Assembly: GCA_934636825.1 (NCBI GenBank)
Contig: CAKUBG010000001.1
Span: 256,080 to 320,079 of the forward strand
Length of the DNA stretch: 64,000 nt
DNA from: an uncultured bacterium
GTDB lineage: Bacteria > Vulcanimicrobiota > Xenobia > Xenobiales > Xenobiaceae
Reading direction: 5' to 3'
Both the position numbers and the translations under genes were made by a program. The stretch's first letter is position 1, and each line of letters starts with the position of its first letter. Under the pieces are notes generated by a model. It was given only the letters and a program-made list of their open reading frames with translations, did not search any database and was not told the DNA's origin. Positions 289 to 36,858 of the stretch are shown here, one piece after another.

Positions 289-2682
289 CTATTTGTTAGG
301 CATAATGAAGCCCATAATGCAAGCAGCATTTACATTGTAGGTCTTACGGCGCACAGAGTTGCTGCTGTTGCCTTCGATGGTAGTGACGGTGCCGCTGGCA
401 GCGTCGTAGCTCTCTACGATACCGACGTGGTCGGCGCTGCTGCGGGTGTTGTCCCAGTCGAACATAATCATATCACCAGCTTTAGGAGCGTAACCATTGC
501 CACCTTGCTGCCAAGTGTTCTGTCCTTTAGACCACTCAACCAAAGTGGGAGTGTAGTTTACGTTGGAGCACTTGCTGAAGTCCATGACACCATGCTTAGC
601 TAAGATACCGGTAGCAAAAGCGGCGCACCAAGGCTGCTGCTGACAATCGAGAGCCCAGCTCTGGTTCCAGTCCTTGGTAATGGCATTGATCTGAGAAGCA
701 TTGCCACTTTCGGTCATACCAACCATAGATCCGGCCTCACTGAGGGCTCCGTCTACGCCCTTGCCGCCCTTAGTCTCGGCACCTTTCAAGTGCTCAAGCA
801 TGTAAGCGCCTACCTGGTCGTGGTAAATACTGGTCACACCCTTGTGCCAATTCTGGTCGGTAGCCCAACCGGCTTTATTTACAGCAGAAGTTTGCTCAGC
901 AATGGAAGCATCGGCAGAAGAACCACCTTTAGAGCGCAAGTTGGCGAAAGTCCTAGCGCCAACATTGATTTGATTCTCTACGCCAGAGAACTTGGAGTTT
1001 CTGGTAGCGTTATTAGGATCGGAGTCGTAAGCGCCTACGCCCATCCAACCGTTGATACCAATACCAGTCTTACCCCACTGTGTTTCTTGACCAGCGATGG
1101 AGAGCAAGACCAACGGATCTACGTTGTTTTCTTTACCGGCTTTAACGAACATAGCGCCAGTACCTTCGGGAGCATCGGAGCCCTTGGAAGCCAAGAAGCC
1201 GTCGATAGCTTTAGCGATGTCGGCGTCGGAGCACTTAGAAAGGTCGATATCGCCAGCAGCGGTAGTTCTGGTAGCGGAACCAGTGCTACCAGTTCCCTGA
1301 GTTCCGCCGGTACCACCAGTACCGCCTACGCCACCAGTGCCGCCGGTGCCACCGCCACCATTATTGACAGCTCCGGTACCGCCATTGTTGCCACCACCAT
1401 TGGAGCCGTTGCTACCATTGGCGCCATTAGAGCCATTGGCTGCACCTTGAGCTCCGGCAGCTTCATCGGAACTTCCCTGAGCGCCCTGAGCTTGAGCAGC
1501 CTCTTCAGCGGGAGCGTTTTTAGCATCGATCTCGGCTTGTACCTTGTCGATATCCTTCTGAAGGTTTTGCTTCTGAGTTTGGATATCTTCAAGCTCGCCA
1601 TTGACGCGCTCTAAGTCTTCGTTGACGCCCTGAAGCTTGTTGGTGATCTCTTCAACCTTTTCCTGATCGCCAGCAGCTTTGGCAGCAGCCAACTCTTCTA
1701 CGAGCTCTTCTTGCTGCTTCTCCAGCTCTTCTTTTTCTTTAAGCTTAGCTTCTTCTTGCTTAGTAAGCTCATCCATATCTTTCTGGAGGTCTTCCATCTC
1801 CTCTTCGGGAGTGGGCTCTAACTCTTCGATCTCTTTATTGATCTTGTCGAGCTTGTCATTTACTTCAGAAAGTTCATCATTGATACCATCGAGCTTGTTG
1901 GTGAGCTCTTTAACTTTGGCCTGGTCGCCAGCAGCTTGAGCTTTTTCGAGCTCTTCGATAGTCTCGTCGCGCTGTTTCTCGAGCTCTTCTTGCTTCTTAG
2001 TCTGAGCTTCCTTCTCTTCGTTGAGCTTCTCGAGCTTCTTTTCCTTAACTTCTTCTTTCTTCTTCTCGACTTCTTCTTTTACCTTAGCTTTGTCGGCATC
2101 GGAAACTTCTTCACCGTCTTCGCCTCTGAGGTTGTCGACCATTTCTTCGAGATCATCGGAAAGACCATCCATACCGATCTTGTCAGCCAGTTTAGAAGCA
2201 CCTTCTAATCCATCGGCAACCTTGTCTTTAACATGATCAACAATCTTATCTTTGACGCCATTAACAAAATCGCCAAACTTTTCAAGAGGATTTTTTTCTT
2301 CAGTTTTGCCGCCAAATTTACCGCCTCCACCGCCGAAACCATTTATACTGTTACTGCTGCCGCTAAACTTCTCTCCTTTAACAGAGAAGCTACCGCTCTC
2401 GTCATCTAAAGAAGCAACTTTTACTCCTCTACCAGCTTTAGCGGCTTCGCTATCACTAACGCTAATCTTATCTTGCTCTTGAGCTTTTTGGGCTTCTTGA
2501 GCCTTGCGAGCTTCTTCAGCCTGCTTGGCTTGTTGAGCTTCTTGAGCCTTACGAGCTTCTTCAGCTTTGCGAGCCTCTTCCTGGCGGCGACGAGCTTCTT
2601 CGGCCTCGCGACGGCGGCGAGCCTCTTCGGCTTGCTGTTGTCTGATAGCGGCAGAATTATCGTAGCTGCTATTGATACTCAT
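289..2682 (-). CDS. Giant coiled-coil peptidoglycan hydrolase, paralog 1 (glucosaminidase-like + C-terminal CHAP domain)
   Basis: Strong GGAGG RBS before the internal ATG (MSINSS...), so the upstream 17 codons of the tracked ORF are probably not translated. ARKAEE-type charged repeats, Gly-rich segments, and a repeated 'ELEKAQAAGDQ.KV.ELTNKL.G.N.EL' coiled-coil module. C-terminus carries 'LLSIAGQETQWG' (glucosaminidase/FlgJ-like), then 'WCAAFATGILAKHG...DHVGIV...EGNS' (CHAP Cys/His). No signal peptide. Confidence 0.75.
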   Translation of the reverse strand: MSINSSYDNSAAIRQQQAEEARRRREAEEARRRQEEARKAEEARKAQEAQQAKQAEEARKAQEAQKAQEQDKISVSDSEAAKAGRGVKVASLDDESGSFSVKGEKFSGSSNSINGFGGGGGKFGGKTEEKNPLEKFGDFVNGVKDKIVDHVKDKVADGLEGASKLADKIGMDGLSDDLEEMVDNLRGEDGEEVSDADKAKVKEEVEKKKEEVKEKKLEKLNEEKEAQTKKQEELEKQRDETIEELEKAQAAGDQAKVKELTNKLDGINDELSEVNDKLDKINKEIEELEPTPEEEMEDLQKDMDELTKQEEAKLKEKEELEKQQEELVEELAAAKAAGDQEKVEEITNKLQGVNEDLERVNGELEDIQTQKQNLQKDIDKVQAEIDAKNAPAEEAAQAQGAQGSSDEAAGAQGAANGSNGANGSNGSNGGGNNGGTGAVNNGGGGTGGTGGVGGTGGTGGTQGTGSTGSATRTTAAGDIDLSKCSDADIAKAIDGFLASKGSDAPEGTGAMFVKAGKENNVDPLVLLSIAGQETQWGKTGIGINGWMGVGAYDSDPNNATRNSKFSGVENQINVGARTFANLRSKGGSSADASIAEQTSAVNKAGWATDQNWHKGVTSIYHDQVGAYMLEHLKGAETKGGKGVDGALSEAGSMVGMTESGNASQINAITKDWNQSWALDCQQQPWCAAFATGILAKHGVMDFSKCSNVNYTPTLVEWSKGQNTWQQGGNGYAPKAGDMIMFDWDNTRSSADHVGIVESYDAASGTVTTIEGNSSNSVRRKTYNVNAACIMGFIMPNK

Positions 2683-2749
2683 AGTAAAATCCCTCCTACC
2701 TTTGCGAGCACAAAAAGCGCTCGACCTGTACACAGGTACTGTTGTTTAT

Positions 2750-2809
2750 ATTATCAAGCGCTTGTTTACTTTATCTAGAATTTATCTACTGATTTAACAT
2801 TTATTTAAC
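2750..2809 (-). promoter_or_regulatory. Conserved promoter module of paralog 1 (GTTAAATAAATGTTAA box, TAGATAA x2, TGATAAT)
   Basis: In the - sense: GTTAAATAAATGTTAAA (2794-2809), TAGATAA at 2782-2788 and 2771-2777, TGATAAT at 2750-2756. The same ordered elements occur upstream of paralogs 2-4. Confidence 0.5.
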
Positions 2810-2844
2810 TTTTAATTTTTTTTACTTCATCTTGAAATATTGTA

Positions 2845-2884
2845 CAAAAAAAGCCCCTCGACCAAAATCGAGAGGCTTCTCGTT
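2845..2884 (-). terminator. Rho-independent terminator downstream of paralog 2
   Basis: - sense: GCCTCTCGA-loop-TCGAGGGGC followed by U8, immediately after the stop at 2902. Confidence 0.6.
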
Positions 2885-2901
2885 AGTTAGCTATATATTT
2901 C

Positions 2902-5900
2902 TTACTTGTTGGGTTCAATGTAACCCATAACGCAAGCTTGGTTGCGATCGTAAGTTTTGACTCTTACGGAGTTGCTGCTGTTACCTTCAACTGTAGTAAC
3001 TACACCGGTACCGGCGTCGTAACTGACTACCAAACCGACGTGATCGGCGCCGCTACGAGTGTTGTCCCAGTCAAACATAATCATATCACCGGCCTTGGGA
3101 GCGTAATCGCCACCGCCCTGGCGCCAAGTGCCCTGACCTTTGGCCCAATTGACCAAAGTGGGAGTATAGTTGACGTTGTCGCAAGCGCTGAAGTCCATAA
3201 CGCCGTGCTTAGCCAAAATACCGGTAGCGAAAGCAGCGCACCAAGGTTGAGACTGACAATCGAGAGCCCAACTCTGGTTCCAATCCTTGGTAATGGCATT
3301 GATCTGAGAAGCGTTGCCACTTTCGGTCATACCTTCCATGGAAAGAGCCTCATCGAGAGCACCTTCGATACCCTTACTACCCTTAAGTTCGGCGCCTTTT
3401 AAGTTTTCCAACATGTAAGCACCAACCTGATCGTGATATATCTTGGTAACGCCTTCATGCCACTTCTGGTCGGTAGCCCAACCGGCTTTGTTTACGGCCG
3501 AAGCCTGATCGGCAATAGAAGCATCGGAAGAAGAACCACCTTTTTCACGTAAGTTGTGGAAAGTTCTAGCACCAACATTGATCTGGTTCTCTACACCGGA
3601 AAACTTAGGATTACGGGTTGAGTTGTTGGGATCGGAGTCATAAGCGCCTACGCCCATCCAACCGTTGATACCTACGCTACCGGAAGCGGTACCCCAACGG
3701 GTTTCTTGACCGGCAATGGAAAGCAGAACCAGAGGATCTACATCATTTTCTTTACCGGCTTTAACAAAGAGAGCACCAGTGCCAGCAGGAGCGGGAGAAC
3801 CTTTTTCAGCTAAGAAACCGTCGATAGCCTTAGCAACATCTTCGTCGGAGCACTTGGAAATATCGATATCACCAGCCGCGCTGCTTCTCTTAACAGAAGA
3901 TCCGGAGCTGACGCTACCAGCGCCGCCGGAACCACCAACGCCACTGACGCCGCCGCCTCCGCCACCATAGTTGCCACCGCCGCCGGAACCGGAACCACCG
4001 TTATTGGCAGCAGCTTGCTGAGCGGCCAGCTGTTGACCAAGCTGGTTTAATTGTTTTTGCAAATCTTCATTGCTAATACCGACAGCTTTTTCAAAATCGC
4101 TCAAATTGTCATTGGACTGAGCAGCGCTTTCAGCAGCTTTAGATTCATCAACTTTAGCTTCGTCAGCTTTGGCTTTGTCGGCAGCAGCAATTTCTTCATC
4201 GCTCATCACTTTGCCGTCGGCGCCAATACGTTTGCCTTCTTCATTGACGAGGTTGCCCTTATTGTCAATCAGCTGGCCATCGCCATTTACCAACTTGCCA
4301 TCTTCATTGAGAGTGCTGCCTTCAGGAAGTTTCTTGCCATCTTCACTGTAAAGAGTGCCGTTCTTGTCCACGAAAACGCCGTCAGGAAGCTTCTCAGGAT
4401 CAACTTTAGCGCTGTCGGTAGCACTATCTTTGGTACCTTCAGTACCGGCGGCTTTAGCATCTTCACCCTGACCGGCGGCATTTTTAGCATCGTCGGCAGT
4501 ATCTTTGGCGCTATCGGCGGCAGCCTTATCGGAAGCGTTGGCGGCTTCAACAGTGCTTACGCCGTCTTGAGCTTTTTCGGCCTTGCCGTCAATTTGACCA
4601 GCAGTATTTTCGGCTTTGGACACCTTCTGATCGGCGCTATTAACTTGACCGGCGGCATCTTCGGCCTTGGTATCAGCTTCAGAAGCAGCAGTTTCGGCTT
4701 GTTCAGCTTTGGTAGCGTCATCGGTAGCTTTAGTTTCGGCTTGTTCAGAAGCGTTGGCTGCTTCAGTAGCGGCAGTTTCAGCTTGTTCGGACTTGCCTTC
4801 AGCGGCGCTGAGCTGGCTTTCCAACTCAGAGGCTTTGCTTTCGGCAGCGTCGGCGGCACTGTGAGCGGCGTCAGCTTTGGCCTGAGCGGAATCTAAAGCG
4901 GACTGAGCTGAAGCAATAGCTTCTTCATCGGGCACTTGCTCGGTGCTTCCGTCTTCGTTTTCGACAGTCTTGGTAGCAGACTTGGCAGCTTCCAAAGCGG
5001 ACTGAGCCTGAGCAACTTCAGAATCGGCCTGAGTAGCTTCAGCAGCTTTATTAGTAGCTTCGGTACGAGCTTCGGTAGCTTGAGACTTAAGCTGTTCCAT
5101 TTCAGCTTTGGCTTTGTCGGCCTTGGACTTGGAGTCTTGAGCTTCAGAAGCAGCTTTGGTTGCATCGCTCTGAGAAGTTTGAGCGGCGGAATTGGCTTCG
5201 GTAGCGGCATTGCCGGCCTCGCTAGCGGCTTGCTGCGCAGCTTGAGATTGCTCGTTGGCAGAAGTAGCTTTGGCTTGAGCTTGTTCTACGTTGGAAGCGG
5301 CATTCTGCTGAGCGGACTGAGCGCTATTTACTTTGTCTTGCTGAGCAGCAGCTTTGGCAGCATTTTCTTGCTCAAGCTGGTTGCGAGTAGAATCAATATT
5401 GTCACTTAAATTGGAAATGCGATTTTGCAAAGAGTTCATATCGTCTTGAGAAGAACTCAATTGCTGATTGACTTGATTCAGCTCTTGGCTCAGTTGCTCT
5501 ACTTTTTCCTGGTCGCCATCAGCTTGAGCTTCGGCTAAATCTTCTACTAACTGGGCTTGCTTTTGCTCTAAAGCTTCGCGCTCTTGGGCTTTCTTCTCTT
5601 GCTCTTTCTTGAGCTCTTCCATCTCGGCTTCTAAAGTGCCCAAAGTTTCGGCGGTATTGGCTTCTTTGCCCTCTTGCTCGCCTTCATTGATCACTTTTTC
5701 TAATTCGCTCTGAGCCGCTTCCAAATCGGTATTGGCTTCATCTACGTCGGCGTTGGCTGCAGCGGCAGTTTTAGCTTGTTCGGCTGCTTCAGTTTGAGTT
5801 TTGGCTTGAGTAGCGGCAGTTTCGGCAGCAGTTGCATCTTTCGCTTTGGCATCTTCGTTGGCTACAGCAGCTTTAGCGTCAGCATTTTCGCCTTCTTCTG

Positions 5901-6189
5901 AAGACTTGACAGCTTTATCGCCAGCTTCTTCAGTTTTTTCACCAGCTTTGGTGGCTTCAGCGGCAGCAGCTTCAGCACTTTCCGCACCTTCAGCGGCAGC
6001 AGCTTCGTCGTCTAAAGAAGCGACATTGAGAGAGCCGAAAGCGTTAATGGCTTCAGAACCAGACAAAGAGATAGAGTCATCGGCCGCAAAACCGAACGCA
6101 TTATTGCTAGACGCAGCAGCAGAAGTGCTGGGCATATTGGTGGAAATACCGGATATTCCTAAAAAGCTTGAAATCTTATCTAACGACAT
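2902..6189 (-). CDS. Giant coiled-coil peptidoglycan hydrolase, paralog 2 (1095 aa; glucosaminidase-like + CHAP)
   Basis: Conserved N-terminal module 'MSLDKISSFLGISGISTNMPS...SLDDE', an Ala/Glu/Gln-rich coiled-coil of about 700 aa, then a GGSGSGGGGNYGGGGGG linker. C-terminus carries 'FVKAGKENDVDPLVLLSIAGQETRWG' and the CHAP motif 'WCAAFATGILAKHG...DHVGLVVSYD...EGNSSNSV'. RBS GGAGAG before the ATG. Confidence 0.8.
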   Translation of the reverse strand: MSLDKISSFLGISGISTNMPSTSAAASSNNAFGFAADDSISLSGSEAINAFGSLNVASLDDEAAAAEGAESAEAAAAEATKAGEKTEEAGDKAVKSSEEGENADAKAAVANEDAKAKDATAAETAATQAKTQTEAAEQAKTAAAANADVDEANTDLEAAQSELEKVINEGEQEGKEANTAETLGTLEAEMEELKKEQEKKAQEREALEQKQAQLVEDLAEAQADGDQEKVEQLSQELNQVNQQLSSSQDDMNSLQNRISNLSDNIDSTRNQLEQENAAKAAAQQDKVNSAQSAQQNAASNVEQAQAKATSANEQSQAAQQAASEAGNAATEANSAAQTSQSDATKAASEAQDSKSKADKAKAEMEQLKSQATEARTEATNKAAEATQADSEVAQAQSALEAAKSATKTVENEDGSTEQVPDEEAIASAQSALDSAQAKADAAHSAADAAESKASELESQLSAAEGKSEQAETAATEAANASEQAETKATDDATKAEQAETAASEADTKAEDAAGQVNSADQKVSKAENTAGQIDGKAEKAQDGVSTVEAANASDKAAADSAKDTADDAKNAAGQGEDAKAAGTEGTKDSATDSAKVDPEKLPDGVFVDKNGTLYSEDGKKLPEGSTLNEDGKLVNGDGQLIDNKGNLVNEEGKRIGADGKVMSDEEIAAADKAKADEAKVDESKAAESAAQSNDNLSDFEKAVGISNEDLQKQLNQLGQQLAAQQAAANNGGSGSGGGGNYGGGGGGVSGVGGSGGAGSVSSGSSVKRSSAAGDIDISKCSDEDVAKAIDGFLAEKGSPAPAGTGALFVKAGKENDVDPLVLLSIAGQETRWGTASGSVGINGWMGVGAYDSDPNNSTRNPKFSGVENQINVGARTFHNLREKGGSSSDASIADQASAVNKAGWATDQKWHEGVTKIYHDQVGAYMLENLKGAELKGSKGIEGALDEALSMEGMTESGNASQINAITKDWNQSWALDCQSQPWCAAFATGILAKHGVMDFSACDNVNYTPTLVNWAKGQGTWRQGGGDYAPKAGDMIMFDWDNTRSGADHVGLVVSYDAGTGVVTTVEGNSSNSVRVKTYDRNQACVMGYIEPNK

Positions 6190-6207
6190 TCAGTAATCTC
6201 TCCTAAT
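4893..6207. repeat. Direct repeat copy A (100% identical to 8416-9730); 5' half of paralog 2 plus 18 nt of leader
   Basis: Three six-frame ORFs have identical translations in both copies at a constant offset of 3523 (4893-5210 and 8416-8733; 4936-5409 and 8459-8932; 5846-6196 and 9369-9719). Identity decays to about 90% between 4450 and 4890. Sequence diverges 18 nt upstream of the ATG. Confidence 0.85.
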
Positions 6208-6265
6208 TCCTCATAAACGAAAAGAGGCGGCACACTGCTGCGCCTTTTCCACTCGTATTCTCTTC

Positions 6266-6329
6266 ATTATCAATTATGACCAAAAATTTATCTACAATTT
6301 AAAAACTGTTTTAACATTTATTTAACATT
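6266..6329 (-). promoter_or_regulatory. Conserved promoter module of paralog 2
   Basis: - sense: GTTAAATAAATGTTAAA (6311-6329), TAGATAA (6288-6294), 15 nt, TGATAAT (6266-6272). The leader has the hairpin AGGCG-N11-CGCCU followed by a U-run. Confidence 0.5.
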
Positions 6330-6375
6330 AAAAATGATTTAACTATTTTTTACTATTTTGTCATGCTGAATTGAG

Positions 6376-6430
6376 CAAAAAAAACTCTCCCCCTTTGGCA
6401 AGTCTTTTACTCGACCAACGGGGAGAGCTC
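6376..6430 (-). terminator. Probable terminator downstream of paralog 3
   Basis: CTCTCCCC (6386-6393) pairs with GGGGAGAG (6420-6427). A8 on the + strand gives a U-run on the - strand. The 26-nt loop is long for a terminator. Confidence 0.45.
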
Positions 6431-6502
6431 TCGCGCTGTATAGGTAGTCCGACTCAAAAATCTAATTTTCGTGAATCAGACTCACCACATCTATGTATAT
6501 TG

Positions 6503-9500
6503 TTAGTCACCGATAGAAGTGTAACCTAATACGCAAGCGTCATTGCGATTGTAGGTTTTTACTCTTACAGAATTGCTGCTATTGCCCTCAACCGTGGTAA
6601 TAGTACCGCTGTCAGAGTCGTATTTTACTACCAGACCAACGTGATTGGGGCTGGTACGGGAGCCATCCCAATCAAAGAAGATCATATCGCCCTTCTTAGG
6701 TGAATAATCACTGCTGGCATGATTCCAAGTGCCTTCACTCTGTGACCAATCCACCAAATAGTTGGTAGAATTGACGTTTTGGCAGCCAGAGAAATCTTCC
6801 ACACCATTTTTAGCCAAGATGCCGCTAGCAAAAGCAGCACACCAAGGCCATTCTTGACAATCGAGAGCCCAACTCTGGTTCCAATCCTTGGTAATGGCAT
6901 TGATCTGAGCAGTATTGCCACTTGCGGTCATGCCTTCCATAGAGAGAGCCTCGTCAATAGCGGCATCAATGCCTTTGTTGCCACTGGAGGAAGAAGTGCC
7001 GGAAGCAGCAGAGGCAGCCTTTATTTCCTCCATCTTAGCTTGTACATAAGGGGCAACTTGATTTTGGTAAATGCTAGTTACGCCATTATGCCAATTTTGG
7101 TCACTGGCCCATCCGGCTTTGTTGACAGCAGAAGTCTGAGCGGCAATAGAGTCGGAAGAAGAGGATCCACCCTTTTCACGCAAATTGTGGAAGGTTCTGG
7201 CACCGACGTTGATCTGTTTTTCCACACCAGAGAACTTAGGATTGCGAGTTGAGTTGTTGGGGTCGGAGTCGTAAGCACCTACGCCCATCCAGCCATCGAT
7301 ACCAACGCTACCAGCAGCGGTACCCCAACGGGTTTCCTGACCAGCGATAGATAATAAAATAAGCGGATCGACATCATTTTCTTTACCAGCCTTGACAAAC
7401 AGAGCGCCAGTACCTTCAGGAGCGGGAGAGCCTTTTTCAGCTAAGAAGCAATCAATTGCTTTAGCCATAGCTTGCTCATTTTCGTCGGTAAGCTCTACTT
7501 TGCTAATCGAGCCAGCTTTGCTAGCTGAAGAGGTGGAACCAGTGCTGCCAGTACCGCCTACGCTACCGGAGCCACCTACACCGCCTCCGCCGCCGTAGTT
7601 GCCGCCACCGCCGGAACCAGAGCCGGAACCACCATTATTGCCAGCAGCTTGCTGAGCAGCACCTTGGTTGGCAATCTGTTGGCCGAGTTGTTCAATTTGC
7701 TTTTGCAAATCTTCATTGCTGATACCGGTAGCTTTTTCAAAGCCGCTCTTCTCTTCAGCAGCTTGACCAGCGCCTTCTTTGGCTTCATCAGTCTTAGCTT
7801 CATCGGCTTTGGCTTTGTCGGCTTTAGCAATATCTTCATCGCTCATCACTTTGCCATTTTCGTCGACACGCTTACCTTCAGCATTGACCTGATTGCCCTC
7901 AGCGTCAATCATTTTGCCATTCTTGTCTATCATAACGCCATCGGCCAGCTTGTCGGTATCGACTTTAGCTTCGCCTTTAGCGTCTTCACCTTGACCGGCG
8001 GCATTTTTAGCATCGTCGGCGGTATCTTTGGCACTATCGGCGGCAGCCTTATCAGAAGCGTTGGCGGCTTCAACAGTGCTCACGCCGTCTTGAGCTTTTT
8101 CAGCTTTGTCGTCAATTTGACCGGCAGTATTTTCGGCTTTGGACACCTTCTGATCGGCGCTATTAACTTGACCAGCAGCATCTTCAGCTTTGGTATCGGC
8201 TTCGGAAGCGGCTGTTTCGGCCTGCTCGGCTTTGGTAGCGTCATCGGTAGCTTTAGTTTCGGCTTGTTCAGAAGCGTTGGCTGCTTCAGTAGCGGCAGTT
8301 TCGGCTTGTTCGGATTTACCTTCGGCGGCGCTGAGCTGGCTTTCCAACTCAGAGGCTTTGCTTTCGGCAGCGTCGGCAGCGCTGTGAGCGGCGTCAGCTT
8401 TGGCCTGGGCGGAATCTAAAGCGGACTGAGCTGAAGCAATAGCTTCTTCATCGGGCACTTGCTCGGTGCTTCCGTCTTCGTTTTCGACAGTCTTGGTAGC
8501 AGACTTGGCAGCTTCCAAAGCGGACTGAGCCTGAGCAACTTCAGAATCGGCCTGAGTAGCTTCAGCAGCTTTATTAGTAGCTTCGGTACGAGCTTCGGTA
8601 GCTTGAGACTTAAGCTGTTCCATTTCAGCTTTGGCTTTGTCGGCCTTGGACTTGGAGTCTTGAGCTTCAGAAGCAGCTTTGGTTGCATCGCTCTGAGAAG
8701 TTTGAGCGGCGGAATTGGCTTCGGTAGCGGCATTGCCGGCCTCGCTAGCGGCTTGCTGCGCAGCTTGAGATTGCTCGTTGGCAGAAGTAGCTTTGGCTTG
8801 AGCTTGTTCTACGTTGGAAGCGGCATTCTGCTGAGCGGACTGAGCGCTATTTACTTTGTCTTGCTGAGCAGCAGCTTTGGCAGCATTTTCTTGCTCAAGC
8901 TGGTTGCGAGTAGAATCAATATTGTCACTTAAATTGGAAATGCGATTTTGCAAAGAGTTCATATCGTCTTGAGAAGAACTCAATTGCTGATTGACTTGAT
9001 TCAGCTCTTGGCTCAGTTGCTCTACTTTTTCCTGGTCGCCATCAGCTTGAGCTTCGGCTAAATCTTCTACTAACTGGGCTTGCTTTTGCTCTAAAGCTTC
9101 GCGCTCTTGGGCTTTCTTCTCTTGCTCTTTCTTGAGCTCTTCCATCTCGGCTTCTAAAGTGCCCAAAGTTTCGGCGGTATTGGCTTCTTTGCCCTCTTGC
9201 TCGCCTTCATTGATCACTTTTTCTAATTCGCTCTGAGCCGCTTCCAAATCGGTATTGGCTTCATCTACGTCGGCGTTGGCTGCAGCGGCAGTTTTAGCTT
9301 GTTCGGCTGCTTCAGTTTGAGTTTTGGCTTGAGTAGCGGCAGTTTCGGCAGCAGTTGCATCTTTCGCTTTGGCATCTTCGTTGGCTACAGCAGCTTTAGC
9401 GTCAGCATTTTCGCCTTCTTCTGAAGACTTGACAGCTTTATCGCCAGCTTCTTCAGTTTTTTCACCAGCTTTGGTGGCTTCAGCGGCAGCAGCTTCAGCA

Positions 9501-9712
9501 CTTTCCGCACCTTCAGCGGCAGCAGCTTCGTCGTCTAAAGAAGCGACATTGAGAGAGCCGAAAGCGTTAATGGCTTCAGAACCAGACAAAGAGATAGAGT
9601 CATCGGCCGCAAAACCGAACGCATTATTGCTAGACGCAGCAGCAGAAGTGCTGGGCATATTGGTGGAAATACCGGATATTCCTAAAAAGCTTGAAATCTT
9701 ATCTAACGACAT
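6503..9712 (-). CDS. Giant coiled-coil peptidoglycan hydrolase, paralog 3 (1069 aa; glucosaminidase-like + CHAP)
   Basis: The N-terminal ~430 aa are identical to paralog 2. The C-terminal hydrolase region is about 70% identical: 'LILLSIAGQETRWG', CHAP 'WCAAFASGILAKNG...NHVGLVVKYD'. Confidence 0.8.
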   Translation of the reverse strand: MSLDKISSFLGISGISTNMPSTSAAASSNNAFGFAADDSISLSGSEAINAFGSLNVASLDDEAAAAEGAESAEAAAAEATKAGEKTEEAGDKAVKSSEEGENADAKAAVANEDAKAKDATAAETAATQAKTQTEAAEQAKTAAAANADVDEANTDLEAAQSELEKVINEGEQEGKEANTAETLGTLEAEMEELKKEQEKKAQEREALEQKQAQLVEDLAEAQADGDQEKVEQLSQELNQVNQQLSSSQDDMNSLQNRISNLSDNIDSTRNQLEQENAAKAAAQQDKVNSAQSAQQNAASNVEQAQAKATSANEQSQAAQQAASEAGNAATEANSAAQTSQSDATKAASEAQDSKSKADKAKAEMEQLKSQATEARTEATNKAAEATQADSEVAQAQSALEAAKSATKTVENEDGSTEQVPDEEAIASAQSALDSAQAKADAAHSAADAAESKASELESQLSAAEGKSEQAETAATEAANASEQAETKATDDATKAEQAETAASEADTKAEDAAGQVNSADQKVSKAENTAGQIDDKAEKAQDGVSTVEAANASDKAAADSAKDTADDAKNAAGQGEDAKGEAKVDTDKLADGVMIDKNGKMIDAEGNQVNAEGKRVDENGKVMSDEDIAKADKAKADEAKTDEAKEGAGQAAEEKSGFEKATGISNEDLQKQIEQLGQQIANQGAAQQAAGNNGGSGSGSGGGGNYGGGGGVGGSGSVGGTGSTGSTSSASKAGSISKVELTDENEQAMAKAIDCFLAEKGSPAPEGTGALFVKAGKENDVDPLILLSIAGQETRWGTAAGSVGIDGWMGVGAYDSDPNNSTRNPKFSGVEKQINVGARTFHNLREKGGSSSSDSIAAQTSAVNKAGWASDQNWHNGVTSIYQNQVAPYVQAKMEEIKAASAASGTSSSSGNKGIDAAIDEALSMEGMTASGNTAQINAITKDWNQSWALDCQEWPWCAAFASGILAKNGVEDFSGCQNVNSTNYLVDWSQSEGTWNHASSDYSPKKGDMIFFDWDGSRTSPNHVGLVVKYDSDSGTITTVEGNSSNSVRVKTYNRNDACVLGYTSIGD

Positions 9713-9730
9713 TCAGTAATCTCTCCTAAC
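8416..9730. repeat. Direct repeat copy B (100% identical to 4893-6207)
   Basis: See copy A. Confidence 0.85.
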
Positions 9731-9797
9731 CTTTCAAAGCAAAAAAAGATGACTGACGCACTGCGCTAAGCGACCTTTTTCCGCCTTTATTATTTCT

Positions 9798-9859
9798 TTT
9801 ATCAACCATTATTTCCGCTTAATCTAGTGTAAAAGTCACGTTAACATTTATTTAACATT
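9798..9859 (-). promoter_or_regulatory. Conserved promoter module of paralog 3
   Basis: - sense: GTTAAATAAATGTTAAC (9841-9859), TAGATTA (9820-9826), 15 nt, TGATAAA (9798-9804). Leader hairpin followed by U7. Confidence 0.5.
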
Positions 9860-9865
9860 GTATAT

Positions 9866-9905
9866 AAAAAAAATAAGCAGCCTTCCAAGCATGGAGGCTG
9901 CTTAT
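9866..9905 (-). terminator. Rho-independent terminator downstream of paralog 4
   Basis: AAGCAGCC(t)TCCA pairs with TGGAGGCTGCTT. A9 on the + strand gives a U-run on the - strand after the stop at 9942. Confidence 0.6.
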
Positions 9906-9941
9906 AAAGTGTTTATTAAATATCAGAGCTGCAGTTGTACT

Positions 9942-12794
9942 CTATTTGTTAGGAGAAATGTAACCCATTACACAAGCTTGGTTACGATCATAAGTTTTTA
10001 CTCTGACAGCTCCGGGAGAGCCGCTGTTACCTTCAACCGTAGTGACAACTCCAGTTGAGTTATCGTAACTAACTACAATACCTACATGATCAGCACCAGA
10101 TCGAGTGTTGTCCCAGTCGAACATAATCATATCACCGGACTGAGGTTCATAATCGCCTCCAGCTTGGCTCCAAGTGCCTTCGCCCTTAGACCACTCCACC
10201 AAAGTGGGAGTATAGTTCACATTGGAGCAATTGCTAAAGTCCATGACGCCATTTTTAGCCAAGATACCGGTAGCGAAGGCGGCGCACCAAGGTTGAGACT
10301 GGCAGTCTAAAGCCCAACTCTGGTTACAATCTTTGGTAATAGCGTTAATTTCGGCAGCATTAGAGTTCTCGGTCATGCCTTCCATAGACAAAGCTTCATT
10401 AAGAGCAGCATCTATGCCCTCACCGCCCTTGGTAGAAGCACCTTCCAAATGCTCGAGCATATAAGAGCTGACCTGGTTTTGATAGATGCTAGTAACGCCG
10501 TTATGCCAGTTTTGATCAGTAGCCCAACCGGCTTCATTAACGGCAGCGGTTTGATCAGCTACTGAAGCATCGGCAGAGGATCCACCCTTTTCACGTAAGT
10601 TGGCAAAAGTTTTGGCTCCAACTTGTATCTGATTTTTTACACCAGCAAACGTAGAATTGGTAGTAGCATTAGTGGGGTTGGAATCGTAGGCGCCTACGCC
10701 CATCCAACCGTTGATGCCGATACCGGTTTTGCCCCATTGCGTCTCTTGACCGGCAATAGAAAGCAAGATCAAAGGATCGACATTATATTCTTTACCAGCT
10801 TCAACGAAGAGTTTGCCCGTGCCTTCGGGGGCTTCGGAGCCTTGCTCACTCAAGAAGCCATCAATAGCGCTAGCTATATCTTCATCTGAACAATTAGACA
10901 GATCTAAATCTCCGGCGGCACTGCTTCTCTTCACTGACGATCCTGAGCTTACACTACCGGAACTTCCTGAACTACCTACGCTCCCGCTGCTACCAACGCC
11001 GCCGTAACTGCCGCTACCTCCGGAGCTTCCCGTGCTACCGCTGCCAGAAGACTGATTAGCCGCTTGAGCTGCGGCCAGTTGCTCACCCAAAGCTTCAATT
11101 TGCTTTTGTAAGTCTTCGTTAGTTATGCCGACAGCTTCTTCAAAGCCATTGGTCTCTTCAGCTTCATTGGCTTTACCGTCAACTTCAGAAGCCGTCTCTT
11201 CAGTTTGTTCAGCATTTTCCGTAGCGCTGTCAGCTTGGCCAGCAGCTTCTTCGGCTTTACTATCGGCTTCAGAAGCAGCAGTTTCAGCATTTTCAGCTTG
11301 AGCAGCGTCTTCGTCGGCTTGATTTTGAGCTTGTTCGGAATTGTCAGCATCTTGAGTAGCTTCAGCTTCAGCATTTTCGGAAGTACCCTCGGCAGCACTG
11401 ACCATATCTTCTAATTGAGAAGCCTTATCTTCAGCTTCGTCGGCAGCTGTGTGGGCAGCTTCAGCTTTAGCTTGAGCAGATTCCAAAGCGGATTGAGCCG
11501 AAGCTATAGCTTCATCATCTTGCACTTCGGTAGTATTGCCATCTTCGTCTTCAACAGTCTTGGTGGCAGATTGAGCCTCTTCTAAAGCAGATTGAGCTTC
11601 AGATACTTCAGAATCGGCCTGATCGGCTTCTTCGGCTTTACTATTAGCTTCGGTACGAGCTTGCTCAGCGGCTGCTTTCAGTTCCTCTAAAGTGCTCTTG
11701 GCTTCTTCGGCTTTAGACTGAGATTGCTGAGCTTGATCAGCAGCTTGGGTAGCTTCACTCTGAGAAGCTTGAGCAGCCGAACTGGCTTCAGTAGCAGTTT
11801 CACCAGCTTGGCTGGCTTGTTGTTGGGCGCTCTGAGAATTGGCATTGGCAGTTTCAGCTTTAGCCTGAGCCTGCTCTAAATTGGAAGAAGCATTTTGCTG
11901 AGCACTCTGAGCAGCCTCAACTTTATCTTGCTGATTCTGAGCTTTGGTAGCATTTTCTTGTTCAAGCTGGTTCTTAGTAGAATCTATAGTGTCGCTCAAA
12001 CGAGAAATATCATTTTGCATTGAGCTTAAAGAATCTTGAGTGTTGCTTAAATCTTGATTTACTTGATTCAGTTCTTGGCTGAGCTGCTCAACTTTTTCCT
12101 GATCTCCATCAGCCTGAGCTTCAGCCAGCTCTTCTACCAACTGAGCCTGTTTTTGCTCCAAAGCCTCACGCTCTTGAATTTTCTCTTCTTGCTCTTTTTT
12201 GAGCTCTTCCATTTCGGCTTCTAAACTGCTTAAAGTTTCAGCCGTAGTCTCTTCTTTGCCCTCACGATCGCCTTCAGCAATCACATTCTCCAACTCACGC
12301 TGGGCAGCGTCTAAATCAGTATCGGCTTCGTCAACCTCAGAATTGGCTTCAGTAGCCGCAGCAGCCTGTTCGGAAGCCTCAGTTTGAGCCGTAGTTTGAG
12401 AAGCTGCCGCTTCCGCAGCTTCAGCATTTTTACTATCAGCCTCTTCTACAGCTTCTTCAGAAGCTATTTGATTATTTTCATTCTCTTCGAGAGCATTGGT
12501 CTCCTCATTGGCAGCAGTTTCAGACGCTTCTTCACTGTCTTGAGTTTGTTCGGTGGTTTGAGCTTCTTCTGAAGCTTGAGCTTCACCATCAGTCTCTTCA
12601 GAAGCTTTATCTTCATCTAAAGAAGCCACACTGAGATTACCAAAAGAGCTCAATACTTCCGAACCGGACAGAGATATAGAATCTTCGGTAGTTAAACTAA
12701 AGCCCGAAGCAGAAGAACTCGTTCCGGAAAGAGAAGGCATATTGCCGGAAATACCAGAGATACCCAAAAAGCTGGAAATTTGATCTAAAGCCAT
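9942..12794 (-). CDS. Giant coiled-coil peptidoglycan hydrolase, paralog 4 (950 aa; glucosaminidase-like + CHAP)
   Basis: N-terminus 'MALDQISSFLGISGISGNMPS' is a diverged form of the paralog 2/3 module. Acidic Glu/Gln-rich coiled-coil. 'FVEAGKEYNVDPLILLSIAGQETQWG', CHAP 'WCAAFATGILAKNG...DHVGIVVSYD'. Confidence 0.8.
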   Translation of the reverse strand: MALDQISSFLGISGISGNMPSLSGTSSSASGFSLTTEDSISLSGSEVLSSFGNLSVASLDEDKASEETDGEAQASEEAQTTEQTQDSEEASETAANEETNALEENENNQIASEEAVEEADSKNAEAAEAAASQTTAQTEASEQAAAATEANSEVDEADTDLDAAQRELENVIAEGDREGKEETTAETLSSLEAEMEELKKEQEEKIQEREALEQKQAQLVEELAEAQADGDQEKVEQLSQELNQVNQDLSNTQDSLSSMQNDISRLSDTIDSTKNQLEQENATKAQNQQDKVEAAQSAQQNASSNLEQAQAKAETANANSQSAQQQASQAGETATEASSAAQASQSEATQAADQAQQSQSKAEEAKSTLEELKAAAEQARTEANSKAEEADQADSEVSEAQSALEEAQSATKTVEDEDGNTTEVQDDEAIASAQSALESAQAKAEAAHTAADEAEDKASQLEDMVSAAEGTSENAEAEATQDADNSEQAQNQADEDAAQAENAETAASEADSKAEEAAGQADSATENAEQTEETASEVDGKANEAEETNGFEEAVGITNEDLQKQIEALGEQLAAAQAANQSSGSGSTGSSGGSGSYGGVGSSGSVGSSGSSGSVSSGSSVKRSSAAGDLDLSNCSDEDIASAIDGFLSEQGSEAPEGTGKLFVEAGKEYNVDPLILLSIAGQETQWGKTGIGINGWMGVGAYDSNPTNATTNSTFAGVKNQIQVGAKTFANLREKGGSSADASVADQTAAVNEAGWATDQNWHNGVTSIYQNQVSSYMLEHLEGASTKGGEGIDAALNEALSMEGMTENSNAAEINAITKDCNQSWALDCQSQPWCAAFATGILAKNGVMDFSNCSNVNYTPTLVEWSKGEGTWSQAGGDYEPQSGDMIMFDWDNTRSGADHVGIVVSYDNSTGVVTTVEGNSGSPGAVRVKTYDRNQACVMGYISPNK

Positions 12795-12847: not shown

Positions 12848-12882
12848 CTGATAATTATCAGAGAAAACATCGGCATTATCTA
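12848..12882 (-). promoter_or_regulatory. Conserved promoter module of paralog 4, including the perfect palindrome CTGATAATTATCAG
   Basis: - sense: TAGATAA (12876-12882), 15 nt, TGATAAT (12854-12860). TGATAAT lies inside the 14-bp perfect palindrome at 12848-12861. The GTTAAATAAATGTTAA box is absent here. Confidence 0.45.
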
Positions 12883-13004
12883 GTAAAAAAAAGCTCGTAA
12901 AATTCGGCTTTTATTATAATTAAATATAAGAAAAATAAATAAGCAAAAAATGATAATAAATTAAAGGAAAGCTAAGGGAAGAGGAATTAGGACTAACAGC
13001 TTAT

Positions 13005-13749: not shown

Positions 13750-14484
13750 ATGAACAAATTCTTTACCAAAAGCCTCATTGTTTCCTTAGCTCTAATTGGT
13801 TGTGCTTGCTGGCCCGCTTCAGCTTTAGCCGAAGAACCAACCCCAACGAAACCTAACACCAGCATTGAGCAAAATCTTTTGGCTGCCAAACCGGAGACCA
13901 CTTCCAAATACAGACACCTCAAGCCATTTTATGACAACGCTCCTGCTCTTACAGAAGTTGTAAAAGTACGCTTCAAAACCAGTGCAGGCAATATTGAGAT
14001 GGAAATTTATCCTCAAGCTGCTCCTAATGCCGCCAAGCGTTTTGTAGAGTTGGTCAAAGCCGGTTATTACGACAATACTCCCATCTTCCGTGTAGTAAAG
14101 AATCCTCGTCCCTTTGTAGCCCAATTCGGCATCAACTGGCGAGATGGCCAGCGTCAATGGAACGAAAAAAGATTCAATGATGATCCAAGTCTCTTCCACT
14201 TGGAAGCCGGAACTTTAGCTTTTGCCAAAGCCGGCCCCAACACCAACTCCACTCAAGTATTTATAAATTACGCCAATAACGATTTCTTGCGTGGACAAAC
14301 TTTTTCGACTTTCGGCATTATTACCAAAGGTTTGGAAATTGCCAATAATTTTAAGCAAGTAGGCGATCCCAATATGGGCTTAAATCAGGGCATGCTTTCC
14401 ACCAATGGAGACGCTTATTTAAAGCAACTTCCTGCTAATCAGCAACCTACCATGATTATCAAAGCCGAAGTTATTAAAGACTAG
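13750..14484 (+). CDS. Cyclophilin-type peptidyl-prolyl cis-trans isomerase, secreted
   Basis: N-terminal signal peptide (..SALAEEP). 'FKTSAGNIEMEIYPQAAPNAAKRFVELVKAGYYD...FRVVKN...FVAQFG' is a cyclophilin fold signature. Confidence 0.75.
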   Translation: MNKFFTKSLIVSLALIGCACWPASALAEEPTPTKPNTSIEQNLLAAKPETTSKYRHLKPFYDNAPALTEVVKVRFKTSAGNIEMEIYPQAAPNAAKRFVELVKAGYYDNTPIFRVVKNPRPFVAQFGINWRDGQRQWNEKRFNDDPSLFHLEAGTLAFAKAGPNTNSTQVFINYANNDFLRGQTFSTFGIITKGLEIANNFKQVGDPNMGLNQGMLSTNGDAYLKQLPANQQPTMIIKAEVIKD

Positions 14485-14538
14485 ATTTCAACTGGAGGGC
14501 TAAGCACTTTTTATGTGGCCCTTTTTTAGGAGAAAAAA

Positions 14539-15279
14539 ATGAATAAATACGCCATATCTGCGCTAGCTACCGTTGTATTGCTGGCCAGCGTGCAATTTGG
14601 TTGCACTAAGCAAGAGACGACTTCAGAAAATCAGTCAGATGTTCAAACTCAGAGCAATACGACTGAGTCTCAACAACAAGAAAAGGAGAGCCCTATGTCA
14701 GCTCAATATCGTTCCCTCACCCCCTTCGGTTCCAATGCTCCGGCTATTACCGAATATACCTTAGTTCGCTTCGAAACTACCGACGGCGACGTGGATATGG
14801 AAATTTATCCTCAAGCTGCTCCCAATGCCGCTAAGCGTTTTGTAGAATTGGTTGAACTTGGATATTATAACGACACCCCTATTTTCCGCGTAGTCAAGAA
14901 CCCCCAGCCTTTCGTAGCCCAATTCGGTATCAACTGGCGCAAAGGTATGATCGATTGGAGAGACAAGAATTTCAACGATGATCCCAGTCTTTTCCACTTA
15001 GATCGCGGCACCTTGGCCTTTGCCAAAGCCGGTCCCAATACCAACTCCACTCAAGTTTTCATCAACTATGGCAACAACGATTTCCTCCAGTCCCAGAATT
15101 TCACCACTTTTGGTAAAGTTGTCAAAGGCATTGAAGTAGCTGATCAGTTTAAGTCCGTAGGCAGCCCCGACATGGGACTCGATCAGGGTATGCTTTGGTA
15201 CAATGGCGAAGCTTATTTGAAAAGCTTACCTGCCAACCAGCAGCCTACTATGATCAAAAAAGCTTACGTAGTTAAATAG
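14539..15279 (+). CDS. Cyclophilin-type peptidyl-prolyl isomerase, tandem paralog
   Basis: About 65% identical to the upstream gene across the cyclophilin domain. Signal peptide present. Confidence 0.75.
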   Translation: MNKYAISALATVVLLASVQFGCTKQETTSENQSDVQTQSNTTESQQQEKESPMSAQYRSLTPFGSNAPAITEYTLVRFETTDGDVDMEIYPQAAPNAAKRFVELVELGYYNDTPIFRVVKNPQPFVAQFGINWRKGMIDWRDKNFNDDPSLFHLDRGTLAFAKAGPNTNSTQVFINYGNNDFLQSQNFTTFGKVVKGIEVADQFKSVGSPDMGLDQGMLWYNGEAYLKSLPANQQPTMIKKAYVVK

Positions 15280-15391: not shown

Positions 15392-16513
15392 CTACTGAGC
15401 GGCTCTCACATAACCGGCCTTTTCTAAATTGCGCCGCAATAAATCAGCAAATCGTGAAGGAAATTCTGCACTGGAGCAAACTTGCATTCCCGAACCGGCA
15501 GCTCTGTGATATCCGGCTTCACCACTTAAAAATACCAAGAAACAATTATCTTGTTCAAAGCCAAAATGGGCCGAAAAAGTATCGTAAGCAGAAATGCTGT
15601 CAATATAATTATCTCCGGACTTGCATTCCAGCCAATAATATTGATTGGCACAACTTACCAAAATATCTCTTTCGCGAGGAGTTCCTTGGCACATAAGTTT
15701 GGCATTGCGAATAATTTCAAACTCATTTTCGTCCAAGTTGAATTCACGACGTACATTCTTTATTACCGCTGCCGTCTTTTGAGCCACATAACGCTCAAAC
15801 CAAAAACCGCTAAAGAAATTGTGAGCAATGCCTATCGTAGAAGCTCGCGCCTGAACTTTGAAGTCAGGGTAGCCTAAATAGCGATATTCATCTAAAAAGG
15901 CAATTTCATAAAGTGCGCGACAGAGCTTGTCAATTACTTTCGCCGACGAAGCCGAGCAAGAGGCAAAATCCAAAGAGAAATTAAAACCGGTACGCAAGTT
16001 AGCTTTTATAGCCAACAACAGAGGACAAATATCCGAGTAGCGGTTTCCCATATAAAGAGCGATTTCTTCCAATCTGTCGTCAAGAGACTCAGGCACCAGC
16101 GGAGAAAATACATCACAAATCGTTATGCCTCTAGTTTCCAAAAACTCAGACAAGCAAGGATAACGCTTGGCGAAATCTTCTTTAACGTGGCTGCTGGGCA
16201 ACTCAAAAATAAGCTCTTCAGCTTCATCTCCAGATAAAGGAAGTTCTCCAGTAGTATCACCATTATCGGGCTTAACAAGCTTGTTTTCTGGCTCTTGTTC
16301 CGGTTCTTCTGTATCTGTGTGTTCAATCACAGATACAGTTTTTGAGGGAAGCGGTTGTTGAACGATTTGCTGCCCCAACTCTTGGCTTGTCTTTATCAAA
16401 TCGGCCGCAGCAGATAAATTATCCCCGGAGAGAACGGCGCCTCGCTCTATGGCAGCAGCGATACGCTCCAAAGCACCGGCTATTCGCTCTAAAGCATTTC
16501 CAATCTTATCCAT
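15392..16513 (-). CDS. Hypothetical protein (N-terminal ALERIA repeats; C-terminal D..ExK-like motif)
   Basis: ORF only. 'DILVSCANQYYWLECK' resembles a PD-(D/E)xK signature, but that is not conclusive. Confidence 0.4.
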   Translation of the reverse strand: MDKIGNALERIAGALERIAAAIERGAVLSGDNLSAAADLIKTSQELGQQIVQQPLPSKTVSVIEHTDTEEPEQEPENKLVKPDNGDTTGELPLSGDEAEELIFELPSSHVKEDFAKRYPCLSEFLETRGITICDVFSPLVPESLDDRLEEIALYMGNRYSDICPLLLAIKANLRTGFNFSLDFASCSASSAKVIDKLCRALYEIAFLDEYRYLGYPDFKVQARASTIGIAHNFFSGFWFERYVAQKTAAVIKNVRREFNLDENEFEIIRNAKLMCQGTPRERDILVSCANQYYWLECKSGDNYIDSISAYDTFSAHFGFEQDNCFLVFLSGEAGYHRAAGSGMQVCSSAEFPSRFADLLRRNLEKAGYVRAAQ

Positions 16514-30988: not shown

Positions 30989-32452
<1,464 letters not shown>

Positions 32453-32498
32453 CTACAAAGGCGGCCTTCAGCCACCGCGATGCTGCCTAAAAAGCCTA

Positions 32499-33416: not shown

Positions 33417-33444
33417 GATTCTCCTTGAAAAAAGTTAACTGCGA

Positions 33445-34977: not shown

Positions 34978-34998
34978 AGAGTTGTGAAAAGCGGAACC

Positions 34999-36519: not shown

Positions 36520-36540
36520 GTCCATCGACACCTCCTAAGT

Positions 36541-36705
36541 GAACGCACTCCCGCCTATATAGAGGTGGGGGCTTCCTGCTTCTGCGAAAACGGCGCTGCA
36601 GCTCAAAAGAGCTGCAGCGACTTACGCTCTCTCCACAGGCGTAGATTCCCGTGCGACCCACGGTATTTTCCCGAAATAGGTTCGTCACGCCCGCCTCTAT
36701 CTTCA
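36541..36705 (-). repeat. Conserved ~170-nt structured element, copy A (in the atpE-atpF' spacer)
   Basis: Shares with copy B the cores GTGAACG(C/T)ACTCCCG and TTCCCGTGCGACCCACGGTAT(T/C)TTCC(C/T)GAA. The hairpins show compensatory changes between the copies. Its end abuts the atpF' RBS. Confidence 0.55.
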
Positions 36706-36858
36706 ATGCCCCAAAGCATAGAAGATTTTCAGCGAGATTAGGCTAAAAAGTTTCGAATTGATTGACAGTTTCCAGCATCAAATAAGAATGGAACTTTTTG
36801 CTTTCGCAATGGCGACAATCTATTCAAAAATTCTCACCTTCAAAGGGAACAAAAAAGC

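Follow-up and report, generated by a model that had tools for sequence, protein, structure and literature searches.

Organization of the array

Here we analysed a stretch of 64,000 nucleotides (64 kb; hereafter the window) of contig CAKUBG010000001.1 from an uncultured gut bacterium of the Xenobiaceae (phylum Vulcanimicrobiota/Eremiobacterota), and in it an array of four genes, P1 to P4, that occupies positions 289-12794 of the minus strand. The four are monocistronic same-strand paralogs coding for proteins of 797, 1095, 1069 and 950 residues, each ending in a glucosaminidase domain of glycoside hydrolase family 73 (GH73) and a CHAP domain, and each gene is preceded by an AGGAG Shine-Dalgarno sequence. 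The array had been singled out from the DNA letters alone in what we call the original prediction, as a family of giant coiled-coil wall hydrolases without a Sec signal, either lytic effectors or a machine for cell-wall remodelling.

All features of the array are on the minus strand. P1 (type C of the ortholog types described below) spans 289..2682; its open reading frame (ORF) was called as 289-2733, and its start is the ATG at 2682, which has an AGGAGG Shine-Dalgarno sequence 8 nt upstream and is identical in public gene calls. From the N- to the C-terminus P1 consists of an ER/K-type Arg/Glu helix, a VASLDDE motif, two 'A..GD.EKV' helical hairpins, a Gly-rich linker, GH73 (nt 760-1245) and CHAP (nt 292-759). 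P2 (type B, 2902..6189) comprises a leader (nt 6004-6189), a central coiled-coil part (nt 3868-6003), GH73 (nt 3373-3864) and CHAP (nt 2905-3372); P3 (type B', 6503..9712), whose catalytic module diverges most among the four, has its leader at nt 9527-9712, central part at nt 7499-9526, GH73 at nt 6974-7495 and CHAP at nt 6506-6973; and P4 (type A, 9942..12794) has them at nt 12609-12794, 10908-12608, 10419-10904 and 9945-10418, respectively. The gaps between the genes hold no immunity-like ORF, as had been claimed, the longest ORF there being one of 52 residues on the opposite strand.

A run of 1321 nt in the 5' part of P2 (4886..6206) is identical, base for base, to the 5' part of P3 (8409..9729), which indicates that the two genes have been homogenised by gene conversion or else arose by recent duplication. 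Public assemblies are broken within the array (among the related loci, L001 ends there and L002 and L003 begin there), and the copy number of the array in metagenome-assembled genomes (MAGs) may therefore be under-called.

Catalytic modules

The C-terminal ~330 residues are 66-80% identical across the four proteins. Pfam Glucosaminidase (PF01832) scored above its gathering cut-off of 30.2 bits in P1 (33.0 bits) and P4 (32.6 bits); hmmscan did not list P2 and P3 for this family, yet their domain is 66-80% identical to that of P1 and P4. CHAP (PF05257) passed its gathering score in P2, P3 and P4. The GH73 glutamate (GQET.WG), the WATD motif, the CHAP cysteine (PWCAAF) and histidine (HVG) and the residues EGNS are invariant in all four. 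The AlphaFold2 model of the C-terminus (confidence score pLDDT 90) matched LytB, AtlE and FlgJ in its GH73 part and LytE, CwlO and LysK-CHAP in its papain-like part. The first domain hence shows the glutamate in an E-[ST]-x-[WF]-G context, a YATD-like motif and a lysozyme-like alpha fold, all of them marks of GH73, and the second shows the profile match, the Cys-His-polar residues and the papain-like fold of the CHAP/NlpC-P60 enzymes, so that the glucosaminidase and CHAP assignments of the original prediction are upheld. Judged by their sequences, P1 to P4 are predicted bifunctional wall hydrolases with intact catalytic residues, in which the GH73 N-acetylglucosaminidase would cut the glycan strand and the CHAP/NlpC-P60 cysteine peptidase the stem peptide or cross-link.

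The pairing of the two domains is not atypical, contrary to what had been thought. Staphylococcus aureus ScaH/Aly (SAOUHSC_02979, PDB 5t1q) also carries a glycosidase and CHAP on one polypeptide and aligns with the C-terminal model over 356 columns spanning both domains, and the same combination is found in PlyC (subunit PlyCA) and in staphylococcal phage tail lysins. ScaH differs from the array proteins in being Sec-exported, in its monoderm host and in having no giant coiled coil, and the sequence identity is only 13-15%. LytB, the GH73 cell-separation glucosaminidase of Streptococcus pneumoniae, has a signal peptide, choline-binding repeats and no CHAP, unlike P1 to P4.

The coiled-coil stalk

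In the full-length AlphaFold2 model of P4, helices at residues 92-178, 183-229, 232-409 and 427-539 (pLDDT 85-96) form an extended stalk that turns at a conserved 'A..GD' motif and bears a beta-hairpin tip at residues 411-425. Its longest helix, of 178 residues, measures ~26 nm in the model, the leader and the catalytic module lie at the same end of the stalk, and a Gly-rich linker joins the stalk to the GH73 and CHAP module. Ala or hydrophobic residues make up 75-100% of the heptad a and d positions, but large hydrophobic residues just 0-25% across most of the length. Taken together, this composition and the modelled geometry suggest an intramolecular antiparallel hairpin held by an Ala-zipper. 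The long coiled coil of the original prediction was therefore found, though as such a hairpin with Ala at a and d rather than as a canonical Leu-zipper.

A Foldseek search with the full-length P4 model returned generic long-helix matches only, with Cg1735 as a weak match and colicin Ia as a non-significant one (E 0.09, prob 0.33); Cg1735/RipC, CwlO, PcsB and LytB are among the structural neighbours of the array proteins. The B-type coil of P2 also contains, at ~4090-4272 (residues ~640-700), an insert of short repeats of the form [DN]G.[LV][VI][DN]..G (for example DGKLVNGDGQLIDNKGNLVNEEGKRIGADGKVM), which is shorter in P3. Pfam gave nothing on this insert, which could be a candidate for wall or ligand binding.

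The leader and the absent export signal

Examination of the N-termini revealed no hydrophobic segment in any of the four proteins, every Kyte-Doolittle mean over 19 residues being below 1.0 throughout their length, and no basic n-region, confirming that they lack a Sec signal and, likewise, a Tat signal. Their net charge is about -47 to -138. Three neighbouring lipoproteins, two cyclophilins and a Big_2 protein, bear canonical signals, and hence the organism uses Sec normally.

The N-terminal module common to P2, P3 and P4 is real and is kept in their orthologs. P1 does begin with an Arg/Glu stretch of the ER/K type, as had been described, yet it is not wholly different from the others, as it retains the submotif D-x-[IV]-S-V-S-x-SEA...VASLDDE (in the form ...SVSDSEA...VKVASLDDE). 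Structure prediction gave no fold for this region, residues 1-123 of P4 being predicted as disordered in the full-length model. The leader of the gut lineage was found on no other cargo, either by a profile search of 5.8e9 proteins or by a full HMMER scan of 1.84e9 representatives; apart from fragments of array proteins, these searches returned just P0084, a protein built in the same manner. A resemblance of the leader to FlgM (MSI[DN]..., D-x-V-x-L-S-x-x-A) was considered and rejected: Pfam gave nothing, and the hhalign probability against Salmonella FlgM was 0.6%.

Promoters, terminators and candidate operators

Each gene was predicted to have its own promoter and terminator, and the cis-elements bear this out. 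Promoter-like TAGAT-N17-TGATAA motifs lie upstream of P2 (6267..6294), P3 (9799..9826) and P4 (12855..12882), and a variant with a 16-nt spacer lies upstream of P1 (2751..2777). These are the only four occurrences in the 64 kb, where 0.14 would be expected, and the same motif precedes the orthologs in L008-L017 and is found almost nowhere else in those flanks. Downstream, we found a terminator with a 16-bp stem and T-run after P1 (213..259), intrinsic terminators after P2 (2845..2881) and P4 (9866..9903), and a terminator-like hairpin followed by T8 after P3 (6376..6430). The -10-like element of P4 and of its orthologs sits within a perfect palindrome, TGATAATTATCA, that is loosely Fur-box-like.

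Above three of these promoters we identified direct repeats of the type bound by WalR. In Bacillus subtilis the WalR consensus is TGTWAH-N5-TGTWAH, and WalR regulons centre on peptidoglycan hydrolases, pcsB included (PMC9210968). An exact repeat, TGTTAA-ATAAA-TGTTAA, stands 16 nt upstream of the -35-like hexamer of P2 (6311..6327) and of P3 (9841..9857), and these are the two exact matches to the consensus in the 64 kb; upstream of P1 there is a WalR/PhoP-type repeat, AGTTAA-N5-TGTTAA, with one mismatch (2794..2810). The genes appear to form four separate transcription units driven from a private promoter under a regulator of the OmpR/PhoB family with WalR-like specificity, a candidate whose identity we infer from the operator.

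A comparable arrangement was seen in the rumen Xenobia MAG RUG13580 (L020:855-10846), which has five tandem signal-less genes, at least four of them with wall-hydrolase domains. In three of the five, MADEISPVS and poly-Ser N-termini are combined with repeats of NlpC-like, GH73 and lysozyme-like type. Inverted WalR/PhoP-type boxes, with at most one mismatch, are carried by three of the five, and a box-like element together with a -10-like element, TTGATAAT, is common to all.

Conservation of the array and selective constraints

Relatives of the catalytic module come nearly all from MAGs of Eremiobacterota/Vulcanimicrobiota/Xenobia. The nearest genomes are the human-gut MAG HGM23016 (99% identity), UBP9_UBA4705, Hadza gut MAGs, Ca. 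Bruticola (Xenobiaceae) and goat-rumen MAGs. The gene order A (P4-type), one or two B (P2/P3-type) and C (P1-type) is repeated in L008-L014, synteny of the array extends over at least eight MAGs, and L015-L018 contain related arrays. The fourfold copy number, earlier called atypical, is no local oddity but the state of a conserved array of three ortholog types, A, B and C, of which B is duplicated. More distant MAGs encode related giants of up to 1988 residues, the longest (L022:72-6038) having a MAISGISSF... leader and both GH73 and CHAP.

The ratio of non-synonymous to synonymous substitution rates (dN/dS), computed between species near synonymous saturation (dS ~1), was 0.02-0.03 in the catalytic module of types A and C and 0.06-0.12 in that of type B, 0.05-0.11 in the coil, and 0.08-0.34 in the leader and acidic spacer. 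The array is a core, vertically inherited locus of gut and rumen Xenobiaceae under strong purifying selection.

A class-wide family of signal-less hydrolases

Smaller relatives, of 250-450 residues, occur throughout the class. They open with a leader rich in Pro, Gly, Asn and Ser, continue with a short hairpin of helices (in many cases with the same 'GD' motif) or a Met/Gln-rich helix and then a Gly-rich linker, and end in GH73 alone, CHAP alone, GH73 with M23, or GH73 with an NlpC-like domain. No signal peptide was present in any that we inspected, and a transmembrane segment lies at the N-terminus of one, P0013. Their genes stand alone in housekeeping contexts, with no conserved neighbours and no immunity or secretion genes adjacent to them. 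The Met/Gln-rich helix was also tried as a Rod-binding domain and this was discarded, there being no Pfam match at E <= 10. In L035 (356-2514) a CHAP-only gene (344 residues) and a GH73-only gene (312 residues), both signal-less, are adjacent and divergent, so that the two activities that are fused in the gut lineage are there carried by separate neighbours. The array is an enlarged, fused branch of this class-wide family of GH73-only and CHAP-only proteins.

Genomic surroundings

The array lies in chromosomal housekeeping surroundings, which include a histidine phosphatase, the cyclophilins, a leucine-rich-repeat protein of the BspA type, TamB, MreB, an enzyme of the EPSP-synthase family, an F-ATPase operon, MlaDE, DnaJ/GrpE, RNase P RNA and gidB/parB; on its other side, past P1, are the Big_2 lipoprotein and an RND efflux pump. 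No phage structural, integration or lysis gene was found in the neighbourhood of the array, and the setting is not that of a prophage, which the original prediction had named among the findings that would overturn it.

Directly beside the array are two tandem peptidyl-prolyl isomerases of the cyclophilin type (13750-15279, +), the one bearing a lipobox and the other a signal-like N-terminus, whose synteny extends to L001 and L008; in the same two loci a protein of 373 residues without a Pfam match (15392-16513, -) is kept next to the array. Beyond it, the BspA-type protein of 1509 residues (16567-21096, -) adjoins a TamB/DUF748 protein of 2334 residues (21214-28218, -), both of them unusually large envelope proteins. 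The F-type ATP synthase operon (30989-38444, -) has two b-type subunits, of 161 and 170 residues, and an atpI-like gene upstream, and the RNase P RNA (51040-51422, +) is bacterial class A (281 bits). Between 58000 and 64000 the GC content falls from ~44% to 34-38%, and gidB (60467-61189) and parB (61250-62164) lie in this part; the array may thus be only ~50 kb from the replication origin region.

A probable flagellar export gate in the lineage

P1 to P4 have neither a Sec nor a Tat signal, in a host that relies on canonical signals for its other proteins, and their passage through the inner membrane must therefore be independent of Sec. Such export would be keyed by the N-terminal leader. As a route, the flagellar type III apparatus, which exports FlgJ in Salmonella, is the best candidate. 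The two-domain FlgJ of beta- and gammaproteobacteria is leaderless and is exported by that apparatus. P1 to P4 resemble it in the missing signal, the disordered N-terminal part and the C-terminal GH73, and FlgJ GH73 structures are among their fold neighbours; they differ from it in having no detectable Rod-binding domain, in lying outside a flagellar operon, in being three times larger and in carrying CHAP and a coiled coil.

Small signal-less GH73 genes lie 3-6 kb upstream of a flagellar cluster in L031, L046 and L047, in which a FliK-like gene, flgF, flgG, a FlgJ of 96-98 residues that contains the Rod-binding domain only, and a FliA-like sigma factor follow one another. Clusters with a FliK-like protein, a FlhB-like protein of 100 residues, FlgF, FlgG, a Rod-binding-only FlgJ (96-102 residues), a FliA/WhiG sigma factor and a tetratricopeptide-repeat protein were seen in L048-L055 (for example L049:7289-12199), L046 (10607-15074) and L047 (4073-8538). 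Many human-gut contigs, from the sample series that also yielded the contigs of the window (MERR22-1, Hadza, ERZ272873xx), encode a FlgG that shares 70% identity with its L031 counterpart, and the tetranucleotide correlation of these contigs with the window is 0.94-0.95, equal to that of a known piece of the same genome. They carry FlgF, FlgG, a FliA/WhiG sigma factor at 196 bits (NCBIfam cut-off 189.6) and a FlgJ of 102 residues that matches positions 18-92 only of the 294-position FlgJ model. The sister family Eudoremicrobiaceae is likewise recorded as having flagellar genes. The lineage very probably possesses the flagellar type III export gate together with a FlgJ stripped of its muramidase, and this makes the gate the best available explanation for a signal-less GH73 family.

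Function of the array

The observations made directly, namely the domain identities, catalytic residues, absent signal, coil geometry (as a model), conservation, selection and cis-elements, can be placed into several models. We favour one to which we give a probability of roughly one half: that P1 to P4 are autolysins of the PcsB/CwlO/RipC kind with an added GH73 domain, exported without Sec and possibly through the flagellar type III apparatus. In such proteins both catalytic domains would hang by a Gly-rich tether from a coil of ~26 nm, behind a conserved disordered leader of 60-120 residues, and their likely role would be the remodelling of the sacculus or the separation of daughter cells. 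A likeness to the FtsEX-regulated PcsB, CwlO and RipA had been noted from the start, and it holds in part: PcsB of S. pneumoniae, CwlO of B. subtilis and RipC/Cg1735 of Corynebacterium and Mycobacterium also place a coiled coil ahead of a CHAP or NlpC/P60 domain, but the Sec signal of that class is missing here, no ftsEX genes occur in the window or its flanks, and P1 to P4 differ further by the extra GH73, the far longer Ala-zipper coil, the disordered leader and a diderm host outside the Firmicutes.

Of the roles first proposed for the array, remodelling draws support from the strong purifying selection, the synteny in the core genome, the occurrence throughout the class and the WalR-type operator, while a diderm whose hydrolases lack both a leader signal and immunity genes could still be using them as effectors. 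With regard to the operator, an exact box was found no more than 250 nt upstream of the start in 11 of 54 family genes against 2 of 413 other ORFs in 705 kb of related loci (Fisher p 1e-9, a value that overstates independence since some of the 11 genes are mutually orthologous), and its bearers include distant small members such as one in L036.

Several points nevertheless weigh against autolysins exported in this manner. The characterised enzymes of the PcsB/CwlO/RipC type all have, to our knowledge, signal peptides. The export route is one that we infer, and the window contains no flagellar, ftsEX or two-component genes; the flagellar contigs are tied to its genome by composition and sample series, not by physical linkage. 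No Pfam Rod-binding (PF10135) or FlgM domain was found in the leaders of P1 to P4 or of 17 relatives (Rod-binding at E <= 10), and a class-wide leader motif (D-x-phi-x-phi-S-x-E, then phi-x-V-A-S-L-D) that was seen by eye reached an hhalign probability of 0.1% and is a qualitative remark only. The TAGAT/TGATAA motif was not found in flagellar loci, and although the spacing TAGA-N17/18-TGATAA would fit sigma-28, the key C of GCCGATAA is missing. The WalR-type box is a consensus match that also fits other regulators of the OmpR/PhoB family, and its opposite strand reads TTAACA-N5-TTAACA, which we take to be a PhoP-type site of B. subtilis. P4 has no such box, a conserved GAAAGCCGAATTTTA element standing in its place there and in the orthologs (~12849-12912, -).

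The most serious competitor, which we regard as possible but clearly the less probable account, is that the proteins are secreted antibacterial or predatory lysins that digest the exposed walls of Gram-positive gut neighbours. They would be released through the completed flagellar channel, by another non-Sec route or by lysis of a subpopulation, with the coil serving as a spacer or receptor-binding stalk. The host is diderm, as TamB and MlaDE in the window indicate and as is V. alpinum of the same phylum, and the outer membrane of the producer would shield its own peptidoglycan, so that no immunity protein would be needed; the array indeed has none. The lack of a leader, a strongly acidic and elongated character and a disordered, Ser-rich N-terminus are common in type III substrates, GH73 and CHAP are domains typical of phage tail lysins and of enzymes that attack Gram-positive walls, and tandem amplification, strong Shine-Dalgarno sequences and separate promoters would suit such weapons. 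A predatory lifestyle has also been proposed for the sister family Eudoremicrobiaceae (PMC9259500). What tips the balance away from lysins is that no arms race is apparent from the core synteny, the stability of the three ortholog types and the very low dN/dS, that the family also exists as small single genes in housekeeping contexts across the class, and that a WalR-type operator is typical of autolysin regulons.

There is also a broader scenario, which we offer tentatively and hold to be doubtful. Xenobia as a class would export peptidoglycan hydrolases independently of Sec by means of a disordered leader, most plausibly through the flagellar type III apparatus and with the hydrolase split from FlgJ; in the gut lineage these would have expanded to stalked lysins of ~100 kDa that could be released to lyse Gram-positive neighbours, the outer membrane being the only 'immunity'.

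It is improbable that the array serves the flagellum alone, as the muramidase partner missing from the Rod-binding-only FlgJ, exported solely to open the peptidoglycan for the rod. The FlgJ of the lineage does lack GH73, small family members lie near flgFG-flgJ-fliA in three lineages, and the family layout of a disordered N-terminal half and C-terminal GH73 without a signal mirrors that of two-domain FlgJ. Four proteins of 85-115 kDa with CHAP and a 26-nm stalk nonetheless exceed what rod penetration needs, the array does not lie near flagellar genes, has no Rod-binding domain and has a promoter motif missing from flagellar loci, and a small paralog would be the more natural partner of FlgJ.

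Bacteriocins of the colicin or pesticin kind would explain the layout well, the disordered N-terminus acting in translocation, the ~26-nm antiparallel helical hairpin in receptor binding and the C-terminal lytic module (a muramidase in pesticin) in killing, after release without a signal; the D-x-I-S-L-S motif, moreover, resembles a beta-strand docking box, and colicin Ia appeared among the Foldseek matches. That match is non-significant, no immunity or lysis gene is linked to the array, and the locus is chromosomal, syntenic and conserved across genera under purifying selection rather than strain-variable, in a family that is class-wide, all of which renders a bacteriocin quite unlikely. We consider it very unlikely that P1 to P4 are peptidoglycan effectors of a type VI or contractile injection system, of the Tae or Tge kind: a leaderless amidase and a glycosidase are the two classic wall-targeting classes of type VI effectors, and a sub-threshold match to TIGR02594 was obtained, but no adjacent immunity, VgrG, PAAR, Hcp or adaptor genes occur in the window or in the 10-kb flanks of 30 or more related loci, and the size and 26-nm stalk are unfit for cargo of the Hcp lumen. 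Finally, a prophage remnant with tape-measure or tail-associated lysin genes is effectively refuted, for while PHROG endolysin families match P1 and the GH73 domain is 32-33% identical to tail lysins of Bacillus phages, the array is flanked by housekeeping genes, free of phage genes, in a locus syntenic across genera, all matches to phage records fall short of 80% of the catalytic module (at most 33% identity and 50% coverage), IMG/VR gave one weak partial match, and phage collections hold distant single-domain relatives only.

The autolysin reading thus places P1 to P4 as a lineage-specific variation on the coiled-coil autolysin theme, unusual in their size, their Ala-zipper stalk, the uniform lack of export signals across the class and a WalR-type operator outside the Firmicutes. 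The well-studied housekeeping autolysins that we know of all reach the wall through Sec or Tat, and a class-wide family of signal-less wall hydrolases points either to a route of export not yet recognised or to the flagellar gate being used more broadly. WalR-like control of autolysins would extend beyond the Firmicutes to a diderm phylum. For a human-gut and rumen lineage without a cultured member, P1 to P4 are abundant and conserved candidate surface or secreted enzymes, and candidate lytic enzymes with two cleavage specificities.

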